Positions 45,113-45,425 of a stretch of 64,000 bases of DNA are shown piece after piece. Origin of the DNA: Candidatus Woesebacteria bacterium RBG_16_42_24 (GTDB taxonomy: Bacteria > Patescibacteriota > Microgenomatia > UBA8517); the NCBI GenBank assembly GCA_001792115.1, contig MGFX01000001.1, positions 240,606-304,605 of the forward strand. The letters are read 5' to 3'. The notes beneath the pieces are model-generated. The model worked only from the letters and a program-made list of their open reading frames with translations, made no database searches and had not been told where the DNA came from. Position numbers and translations under genes: made by a program. Within the stretch, counting starts at the first letter, position 1. The number at the start of each line of letters is the position of its first letter.

Positions 45113-45425
45113 GAGGATGTAATTCCTTTCCGCTCTTTTAAATCTCACCCAGCTATCAATTAACCCTATCGCTCTATAAATGAGCAAACCAGCTTGTCTG
45201 GTTACTTATGGTGTCTGGAAAGACACCGCAGAGGTTTCGACCTCTGCCTTTTCAGGGGCCAAATATGGCACTCTGGAGAAAGTTATCGTTGATATCCGTG
45301 TAACCTCCTAGAAGAGGCACGTATAGCGACTTGTGCAAAGAAGTTTAGGATTGATCCAGTTTTTTCCTGCAGAGGGCCAAATTGAGGCACATGGTATCTG
45401 CAATACGAAACCATGTTAGACCGAG
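45113..45425 (+). ncRNA. Structured leader / candidate retron non-coding RNA (msr-msd)
   Basis: About 310 nt, non-coding in all frames. Three consecutive perfect hairpins lie at 45187-45203 (aaccag/ctggtt), 45210-45227 (ggtgtc/gacacc) and 45228-45247 (gcagaggt-UUCG-acctctgc), plus further stems. It sits upstream of an Ec86-like RT in the usual ncRNA position. Confidence 0.3.

Follow-up and report, generated by a model that had tools for sequence, protein, structure and literature searches.

In type VI retrons the logic familiar from other retrons is turned round, in that the reverse-transcribed DNA of Retron-Vpa2 of Vibrio parahaemolyticus turns a toxin on, not off. This system makes a hybrid RNA (hyRNA) of approximately 470 nucleotides (nt) that joins an msr-msd region to the coding sequence (CDS) of a toxic protein, SP, whose ribosome-binding site (RBS) and AUG are sequestered; the reverse transcriptase (RT), a helix-turn-helix (HTH) protein and the RNA reside in one complex (Zhang et al., bioRxiv 10.1101/2025.10.22.683967). 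Its multicopy single-stranded DNA (msDNA) is undetectable at rest, accumulates on triggering and derepresses SP translation even in trans, which makes type VI msDNA an activator and not an antitoxin; the authors further noted a conserved 7-nt direct repeat present in both msd and riboregulator, and proposed that the complementary DNA (cDNA) copy hybridizes to the second repeat (bioRxiv 10.1101/2025.10.22.683967). In Retron-Sen3, by contrast, cDNA and SP are constitutive and control is exerted post-translationally through the HTH protein; dual, mutually crossing helix sets are also described for this system (Garcia-Rodriguez et al., bioRxiv 10.64898/2026.04.27.721009). These are the two type VI systems studied, both from Gammaproteobacteria, both presented as preprints, and they are at odds on mechanism. 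Here we describe a segment, called the leader, at positions 45113-45425 of a 64,000-nt stretch of DNA (the window) from Candidatus Woesebacteria bacterium RBG_16_42_24, a member of the Candidate Phyla Radiation (CPR). As judged from comparative sequence data, the leader very probably constitutes the 5', non-coding portion of a type VI retron hyRNA. The locus thereby appears as an added member of an RNA kind first described in 2025-26, within a clade centred on the CPR.

The leader is directly followed on the plus strand by three genes in the order SP, HTH, RT, the 3' end of the HTH gene overlapping the RT start by 14 nt (Table 1). Retron RTs share a motif set consisting of YxDD, NAxxH and VTG or a variant thereof. 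The translation of the RT encoded here contains YVDD, NAAQH (the NAxxH motif) and TTG at the place where retrons have VTG, and across 26 relatives the N, A, H, T and G of these motifs vary little or not at all. Among the 44 RT models of PADLOC the best-scoring one was RT_VI (1.4e-77; 258.7 bits), with RT_III-A as runner-up (2.8e-57). RT homologs with E ≤ 1e-20 numbered 244; the nearest ones come from Patescibacteria metagenomes and metagenome-assembled genomes, and the order SP-HTH-RT is retained among relatives. Because the combination of SP, HTH_VI and RT_VI defines type VI in the classification of Mestre et al. 2020 as implemented in PADLOC, the genes of this locus qualify by sequence as a type VI retron with respect to RT, HTH and SP.

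An open reading frame (ORF) of about 60-70 amino acids (aa) is found at the SP position in more than 30 loci; these ORFs form one alignable family whose conservation shows codon periodicity (0.77/0.84/0.65). SP of the window matches, at 100% identity, a hypothetical protein from Candidatus Woesebacteria bacterium RBG_19FT_COMBO_42_9 and had no match in Pfam, PADLOC or NCBIfam. By analogy with Vpa2 and Sen3, from which toxicity is extrapolated, it is presumed to be the toxic effector. SP in the window exceeds that of the closest relatives by five or six codons, having lost the ancestral stop (…AAA TAA/TAG); the frame reads through to the UAA at 45636-38, which lies inside the second inverted repeat (IR2) and the terminator base (45620-45640). 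The HTH protein shows family-level likeness to type II antitoxins (HipB, PezA, MqsA-like), with every score under the curated cut-offs. In one relative (L109, positions 2501-3808), whose RT is 73% identical, HTH and RT were called as a single ORF (protein P0002, 435 aa; HTH_3 plus RVT_1). Either the fusion is natural, in line with the complex of HTH and RT that has been reported, or this one metagenome contig contains a frameshift error.

The nature of the leader was addressed by comparison of 117 related loci gathered from metagenomes, species-representative genomes and exact-protein look-ups. With positions 45050-45700 as query, nhmmer returned essentially full-length alignments to 13 loci, two of which are identical in sequence. 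The 12 distinct loci and the window were aligned with MAFFT blind to structure (alignment A2; 13 sequences, RTs 48-79% identical to that of the window), and a profile search extended the reach by about 20 further loci. All stems are conserved in A2, as are the promoter and many single-stranded motifs. A covariance model built on 45111-45258 matched 38 loci, always on the RT strand and approximately 0.9 kb upstream of the RT gene in those loci that were fetched with 2.5 kb of upstream flank; within the window it matched a single time. In the resulting alignment 93.2% of the cells are paired, compared with 67.8% in shuffles, and 28 of 32 pairs show double changes. Since this alignment was fitted to the model, a hand-written structure was also counted on the structure-blind A2, where the paired cells amount to 94.7% (slid partners: 42-52%) and double changes occur at 41 of 78 pairs (shuffles: 20 ± 3). 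For the 5' domain, RNAalifold predicted 32 pairs, 18 of them compensated, when these 13 loci were aligned by MAFFT blind to structure. Counts of this kind are affected by the relatedness of the sequences, an effect that the slid-partner controls and the structure-blind alignment lessen but do not remove. Compensatory changes occur in nearly every stem (13-38 loci). At several plus-strand positions G-U is the commonest pair in A2, and the structure therefore belongs to the plus-strand RNA. Taken together, these sequence comparisons show that the leader specifies a conserved, highly structured, non-coding plus-strand RNA joined to the SP ORF.

A first-pass annotation had singled out this segment on account of three back-to-back perfect hairpins. 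An exact-hairpin scan finds all three, H1 to H3, exactly where they had been placed, and the additional stems then listed, GCCA-AATA-TGGC (45258-45269) and TGCAGA (45368-73) with TCTGCA (45397-402), are present as well. The UUCG tetraloop to which it drew attention does occur in the third hairpin, behind a U-A closing pair, in the window only; other loci have different loops, and by this alignment the UUCG loop is incidental and not a feature of the family. The density of stems, described as far above background, is indeed about 15 times the window mean (three perfect hairpins with stems of at least 6 bp per 100 nt, against a window average of about 0.2), but two other spots, at ~51771-51880 and ~52551-52680, reach four per 100 nt and are the only ones above the leader, which leaves density a weak argument when taken alone. 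Both of these spots lie inside ORF 51764-52702, the first ORF of an apparent ribosomal-protein operon. With hairpin density not unique to the leader, the decisive evidence is the covariation across homologs. Folding of 45100-45440 gave -115.6 kcal/mol, compared with -86.9 ± 5.1 kcal/mol for shuffled sequences (z = -5.65; none of 100 shuffles folded as well). For the 580-nt RNA 45111-45690, z was -7.9 and the unconstrained minimum free energy (MFE) -199.0 kcal/mol.

The statement that no ORF covers the segment has to be amended in that two ORFs of 43 aa overlap it, one on either strand. The plus-strand ORF was rejected as a coding region: its ATG is absent from 10 of the 13 loci, length differences are not multiples of three, and codon periodicity is lacking. 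One check that the annotation had asked for, folding and covariation analysis across homologous loci, left the stems standing with compensatory changes and the plus-strand ORF as non-coding. Its suggestion of an msr-like region or another regulatory RNA is likewise borne out by the type VI retron genes downstream, the msr-like hairpins and the sequestered RBS. Besides the incidental nature of the UUCG loop, two things had escaped it: the structured RNA extends beyond the leader, through the SP ORF, to the terminator at 45635-45688, and the RBS is itself part of the structure.

Several elements of the leader resemble an msr-msd region in their arrangement. P2, H1-H3 and H4 presumably constitute the handle bound by the RT. 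A hairpin equivalent to H4, with changed stem sequences, is predicted in 9 of the 13 loci. The long hairpin that follows is poorly conserved in sequence, and a single long hairpin is nonetheless the predicted fold in 10 of 13 loci (mean z -2.0). Variable sequence combined with a kept fold is what is expected of an msd, and by analogy with Vpa2 this hairpin is presumably the msd template. Largely invariant single-stranded motifs were found in the 13 loci: AUCG (45168-45171), which precedes P2; UUACUUAUGG (45202-45211), a linker following H1 and reaching H2; AAAGAAGU (45337-45344); and GUUAGA (45415-45420), which follows H6. Their conservation makes these four motifs candidate sites of contact with RT or HTH, or of priming. 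Invariant G residues at 45132, 45171, 45210/11 and 45228 are candidates for the branching G.

The boundaries of the RNA can be predicted from conserved signals at both ends. The promoter that the annotation had seen ahead of the stems (TTGACA with an extended -10) was located at 45076-45104; its hexamers are invariant or near-invariant in the 13 loci, and transcription is predicted to start at about 45110-45112. At the other end, an intrinsic-terminator-like hairpin is 95% paired with double changes at 12 of 21 pairs and ends 8 nt short of the HTH start codon. A simple terminator scanner did not flag this hairpin owing to one internal mismatch. According to the fold it is the probable 3' end of the hyRNA, and its position ahead of HTH means that expression of HTH and RT would require read-through. 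Conserved promoter and covarying terminator thus bracket 45111-45688, and helices tie the leader to the CDS and to the region behind the stop codon. These features point to one transcript of about 575 nt, probably running from about 45111 to the terminator at about 45688.

The promoter -35 box is overlapped by an operator-like palindrome. Its consensus has four matches in the window, with 0.83 expected, and the copy at the retron carries one mismatch (a degenerate half-site, AGTCA). In 19 fetched loci the exact sequence TGTCA-N7-TGACA stands at the same relative position, about 45 nt upstream of where the 5' domain of the RNA lies, and the operator block is invariant in A2. Judged by this conservation it is likely the binding site of the HTH protein, which would then autoregulate the operon. 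Four of these 19 loci (L054, L055, L064 and L069) have TGTCA-N7-TGACA at the expected place about 900 nt upstream of RT; the RNA covariance model found no match in L054, L064 and L069 despite the operator (L055 is a near-duplicate of L054 and was left out of this search). The operator thus appears, from these loci, to be conserved beyond the reach of the RNA 5' domain. Elsewhere in the window, a perfect palindrome, TGTCAACCCGGTTGACA at 4817-4833, resembles the retron operator in its TGTCA-N7-TGACA half-sites and spacing; it may be a second site bound by an XRE-type regulator or a coincidence.

Two sets of long-range helices connect the leader with the SP gene. The first comprises P1 and P1b. 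In the window MFE fold P1 consists of the helices 45132-39:45438-45, 45141-43:45432-34 and 45144-49:45425-30; its CUCACC/GGUGAG helix is 93.5% paired in A2, and the duplex had a mean z of -1.75 relative to shuffles in 33 loci, 48% of them falling under -1.64. P1b is formed by sequences that differ strongly among loci, with a mean z of -2.01 in 27 loci and 56% under -1.64. The unconstrained MFE fold uses both P1 and P1b, so that Shine-Dalgarno (SD) sequence, AUG and repeat copy 2 (see below) are hidden. The second set is made up of IR1-IR2 and a helix between leader and CDS. The IR1-IR2 core of 8 pairs is 95% paired in A2, and 6 of the pairs show double changes. The leader-CDS helix (13 bp) is 95.9% paired with 7 double-changed pairs, and synonymous changes of the Leu codon in the conserved E-R-L-D stretch are matched by changes in the leader. 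Forcing this second set gave a fold of -190.6 kcal/mol. IR2 and the terminator base have the six bases CUAAGC (45635-40) in common, and both pairings covary; it is a possibility, by inference only, that the amount of read-through into HTH-RT is adjusted by RNA conformation as well. A longer IR1-IR2 pairing, continued into the arm of the terminator (45335-42:45641-48), met with persistent mismatches and almost no compensated pairs.

The leader also contains a direct repeat, GAGGCAC, copy 1 of which is placed apically in the variable hairpin, on its 3' arm, and copy 2 between P1b and H6, within the loop of H5. In local folds of many loci copy 2 is placed in a hairpin loop, and H5 stems covary (for example GACAGUG/CACUGUC in L076 and L114). 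Equivalent repeat pairs, 53-79 nt apart, were found in 27 of about 35 loci examined. The repeat sequence itself varies by lineage (GAGGCAC, GGGGCAC, GUGGCAC, GUAGCAC, CGACACA, GCUACACC, UGGGAGACC and others). For the longest word common to the msd zone and the zone of the riboregulator, the mean length is 7.39 nt when both zones are taken from one locus and 6.05 nt when they are taken from different loci; none of 2000 permutations attained the observed mean. When direct repeats change in concert, a complementary partner common to both is implied; this partner may be either the cDNA of copy 1 acting on copy 2 or the 5' arm of the msd alternating between the two copies. A second candidate repeat, GCAGAGG at 45370-76, which repeats an arm of H3, was discarded as it shows no concerted change across loci.

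Table 1. Positions of predicted and annotated features in the window (A2, structure-blind alignment of 13 sequences; 38 loci, covariance-model alignment)
Feature	Position	Strand	Remarks
Operator-like palindrome	45065..45081	.	AGTCA-N7-TGACA; consensus TGTCA-N7-TGACA; overlaps -35 box
Sigma-70-type promoter	45076..45104	+	TTGACA 45076-81, 17-nt spacer, TG-n-TAGATT 45096-45104; 10/12 consensus matches, TG extension
SL0 stem-loop	45112..45129	+	compensatory GC/AU/CG/UA variants; 89-92% of cells paired
P1 5' strand (5' inverted repeat)	45132..45149	+	pairs with 45423-45445
P1b 5' strand (variable segment)	45152..45167	+	pairs with 45373-45388, 5' of and into repeat copy 2
P2 small hairpin	45171..45185	+	GCUC/GAGC; A2: 100% paired, double changes at 3/4 pairs; 38 loci: 93% paired
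43-aa ORF	45180-45311	+	overlaps leader
H1, msr-like	45187..45203	+	AACCAG/CTGGTT; 38 loci: 96.7% paired, double changes at 6/6 pairs
H2, msr-like	45210..45227	+	GGTGTC/GACACC; 38 loci: 96.9% paired, double changes at 5/6 pairs; A2: 98.7% paired
H3, msr-like	45228..45247	+	GCAGAGGT-TTCG-ACCTCTGC; 38 loci: 97.2% paired, double changes at 5/7 pairs; loop not conserved
H4 hairpin	45249..45279	+	UUUUCAGGG-GCCA...UGGC-CUCUGGAGA; contains gcca-aata-tggc stem; in window MFE fold
43-aa ORF	45283-45414	-	overlaps leader
Variable long hairpin, candidate msd	45288..45330	+	repeat copy 1 in apical 3' arm
Repeat copy 1	45314-45320		GAGGCAC
IR1	45340..45352	+	pairs with IR2 45631-45643
Leader strand of leader-CDS helix	45353..45365	+	GAUCCAGUUUUUU; pairs with SP codons 45492-45504 (E-R-L-D)
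H5 riboregulator hairpin	45368..45402	+	TGCAGA...TCTGCA stem, repeat copy 2 in loop; alternative to H6 and P1b
Repeat copy 2	45384-45390		GAGGCAC
H6 hairpin	45389..45416	+	ACAUGGU/ACCAUGU; 86% paired, double changes at 3/7 pairs; in window MFE fold; just 5' of Shine-Dalgarno
P1 3' strand	45423..45445	+	Shine-Dalgarno GAGGUGA, SP AUG 45435, codons 2-4
SP	45435..45638	+	67 aa, strong Shine-Dalgarno, ATG 45435, stop UAA 45636-38
IR2	45631..45643	+	contains SP stop UAA 45636-38; overlaps terminator base
Intrinsic-terminator-like hairpin	45635..45688	+	19 + 3 bp in fold (22-bp hairpin 45635-83), dG -28.8 kcal/mol, then UUUUU
HTH protein, Cro/C1-XRE type	45696..45992	+	98 aa from ATG 45696; PADLOC HTH_VI 7.4e-24; Pfam HTH_3 4.4e-14
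Retron reverse transcriptase	45979..47004	+	341 aa; PADLOC RT_VI 1.4e-77; Pfam RVT_1 1.5e-21
Small ORF and XRE-like ORF	39126-39730		island
DUF3800-like gene	39789-40415	+	island, upstream of retron
DUF3800 gene	41581-42216	+	Pfam 3e-13; 1 kb beyond DUF3800-IX RNA
MazG-like gene	42411-42779		island
Type II methyltransferase	42929-44125		island, upstream of retron
TdeIII-type endonuclease	44122-44958		island, upstream of retron
HicB/HicA	47280-47805		island, downstream of retron

By analogy with Vpa2 we propose a route of activation for this locus to which we assign about an even chance. In the resting state the 5' inverted repeat would lie on the SD sequence, the AUG and the first codons, and the neighboring strand on repeat copy 2; with these elements paired, SP would stay untranslated. 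IR1-IR2 and the leader-CDS helix would clamp the SP coding region, and RT and HTH would bind the cluster of msr-like hairpins. The hairpin at 45288-45330 would be reverse transcribed from a primer site near IR1, a reaction restrained at rest, and msd cDNA would accumulate upon phage infection. The cDNA segment GTGCCTC, the complement of the repeat, could then anneal to copy 2 in competition with P1b and H6, whereupon the basal stem would unzip and free the SD sequence, SP would be made and the cell would arrest. The HTH protein is envisaged to restrain the system and probably to bind the operator over the -35 box as well. It is tempting to go one step further and to speculate that, in this clade of Woesebacteria and other CPR bacteria, the repeats provide covariation-style evidence for reverse-transcribed DNA serving as a sequence-specific key to the riboregulator of its parent RNA, and that the sharing of bases between IR2 and terminator sets read-through and so closes a feedback loop; we regard this combined proposal as tentative and rather doubtful.

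A number of observations weigh against the Vpa2-like interpretation. Retron-Sen3 is at least one type VI retron that does without msDNA-dependent translational control, and a census is cited in which six type VI retrons, one of them from Ca. Levybacteria, gave no msDNA when expressed in E. coli; basal msDNA was mostly absent from the published E. coli tests of other type VI retrons (bioRxiv 10.64898/2026.04.27.721009). The covariance model had no significant match in two gammaproteobacterial type VI loci, of a Psychrobacter plasmid and a Klebsiella P2-like phage, both of which have the order SP-HTH-RT; the likeness to the Vpa2 and Sen3 RNAs rests, by these searches, on shared architecture and not on demonstrated homology of RNA sequence. 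No G abuts either of the candidate priming duplexes, P1/P1b or IR1-IR2. In the MFE fold of the window copy 2 is base-paired and not exposed in a loop. Finally, the two helix sets (P1/P1b and IR1-IR2/leader-CDS) cross each other and both covary; in structural terms they would represent either a switch or a long-range pseudoknot.

The main rival to the Vpa2-type route accepts the same type VI RNA and places control after translation, as documented for Retron-Sen3: cDNA and SP would be constitutive, HTH would neutralize SP, a host signal such as inhibition of RecBCD would release the toxin, and the leader would mainly serve as template and scaffold. This arrangement gains credit from the RNA of Sen3, which has the same stem-loop and 5' inverted repeat, an RBS in the basal stem and IR1-IR2, and it accords with the likeness of HTH to type II antitoxins, below cut-offs as it is, and with the HTH-RT fusion of L109, which fits a protein complex. 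We nevertheless consider it rather unlikely, given that matched, co-varying 7-nt repeats have no role in the Sen3 model, that extensive and conserved sequestration of SD and AUG is a better fit to translational control, and that Sen3 has been placed in the mainly proteobacterial lineage cl2075 (bioRxiv 10.64898/2026.04.27.721009).

Two other explanations dispense with a hyRNA altogether. The leader might act purely in cis, as a translational repressor and attenuator of SP-HTH-RT that is never reverse transcribed, with the RT using another template. Sequestration of the RBS is classic for leaders, as is a terminator that overlaps with an alternative helix; Rfam gave no msr match at the locus, and the lack of msDNA for CPR and other type VI retrons in E. 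coli (bioRxiv 10.64898/2026.04.27.721009) would agree with such a role. Yet the RT belongs to the retron clade, whose known relatives copy adjacent non-coding RNA; the leader holds both a cluster of msr-like hairpins and a variable hairpin typical of msd; it is difficult to account for repeats that evolve in concert unless there is a complementary strand; and the covariance model found no other structured candidate in the window. A leader acting in cis only is thus very improbable. As for a chance cluster of palindromes, a repeat element at the DNA level or a small coding region, the non-unique hairpin density and the two overlapping 43-aa ORFs are all that speak in its favor; the z values of -5.65 and -7.9, compensatory changes across 13-38 loci, plus-strand G-U pairs, the unconserved plus-strand ORF without codon periodicity and the fixed position relative to SP-HTH-RT make it next to inconceivable.

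Regarding the element as a type VI hyRNA, the locus and about 35 relatives carry the same RNA architecture into the CPR. They supply a deep, well-covarying alignment for an RNA without a matching Rfam family: none covers the element, either at the gathering score across the whole window or at E ≤ 10 across 44900-45700. A match to the Rfam msr family (RF00170) at 44933-44963 was dismissed as noise (20.2 bits against a gathering score of 52; E = 1.2), being situated outside the element in the restriction endonuclease gene. What this locus adds to the literature is that the repeats evolve in concert and that terminator and IR2 overlap. Matched repeats that change together are evolutionary evidence bearing on the proposed DNA-RNA hybridization step, and the feedback loop through terminator and IR2, if true, is not described for Vpa2 or Sen3. 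In terms of annotation, leader, small ORF and terminator belong together with the HTH and RT genes as a single functional unit.

The retron is situated in a defence and toxin-antitoxin island (window 39126-47805) beside the ribosomal-protein operon; its other members are listed in Table 1. Directly past the DUF3800-like gene of this island, on the opposite strand, is an Rfam DUF3800-IX RNA (RF02968; 40447-40515, minus strand; 50.3 bits against a gathering score of 36.8).

Compared with the msr-msd of a canonical retron (Ec86/Retron-Eco1; RF00170), the RNA described here is likewise encoded on the same strand as, and upstream of, a retron RT, has terminal inverted repeats predicted to close it (P1/P1b or IR1-IR2), and presents short msr hairpins (P2 and H1-H3, which covary here) followed by a variable msd hairpin. 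It differs in that an effector ORF is embedded in the RNA, that the 3' inverted repeat is the RBS, and that the a1-like strand has no G directly at its end. The control of a small toxin ORF by its own mRNA is also known from hok, a type I toxin-antitoxin system in which distant parts of the mRNA pair with the translation start and the ORF stays silent until the structure changes. In hok the trigger is 3' processing and the inhibitor an antisense RNA, whereas the proposal made here invokes reverse-transcribed DNA of the same RNA.

With Sen3 the locus has in common a conserved stem-loop upstream of its 5' inverted repeat (SL0), an SP RBS in the basal stem, a long internal domain with a non-conserved center, IR1-IR2 flanking SP, and structure that reaches into the SP CDS. 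By contrast, no significant IR1-IR2 covariation was found for Sen3, while 6 of 8 core pairs are double-changed here; the Sen3 paper does not describe the terminator overlap found here; and the cl2075 lineage to which Sen3 belongs is predominantly one of Beta- and Gammaproteobacteria, whereas the present host is a CPR bacterium. The IR1-IR2 pair has its counterparts in IR1-IR2 of Sen3 and in the a1/a2-like repeats of Vpa2. Like Vpa2, the locus combines a structured msr-msd-like region and the SP CDS on one RNA (the transcript being predicted here), sequesters RBS and AUG, ties the region 3' of SP to the first arm by inverted repeats, carries a direct repeat of 7 nt that is shared by msd hairpin and riboregulator, and keeps the order SP-HTH-RT. 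It departs from Vpa2 in its CPR host, in the predicted length of its RNA (about 575 nt as against about 470 nt) and in the behavior of the direct repeats, which are highly conserved according to the Vpa2 paper and which here vary between loci in concert.

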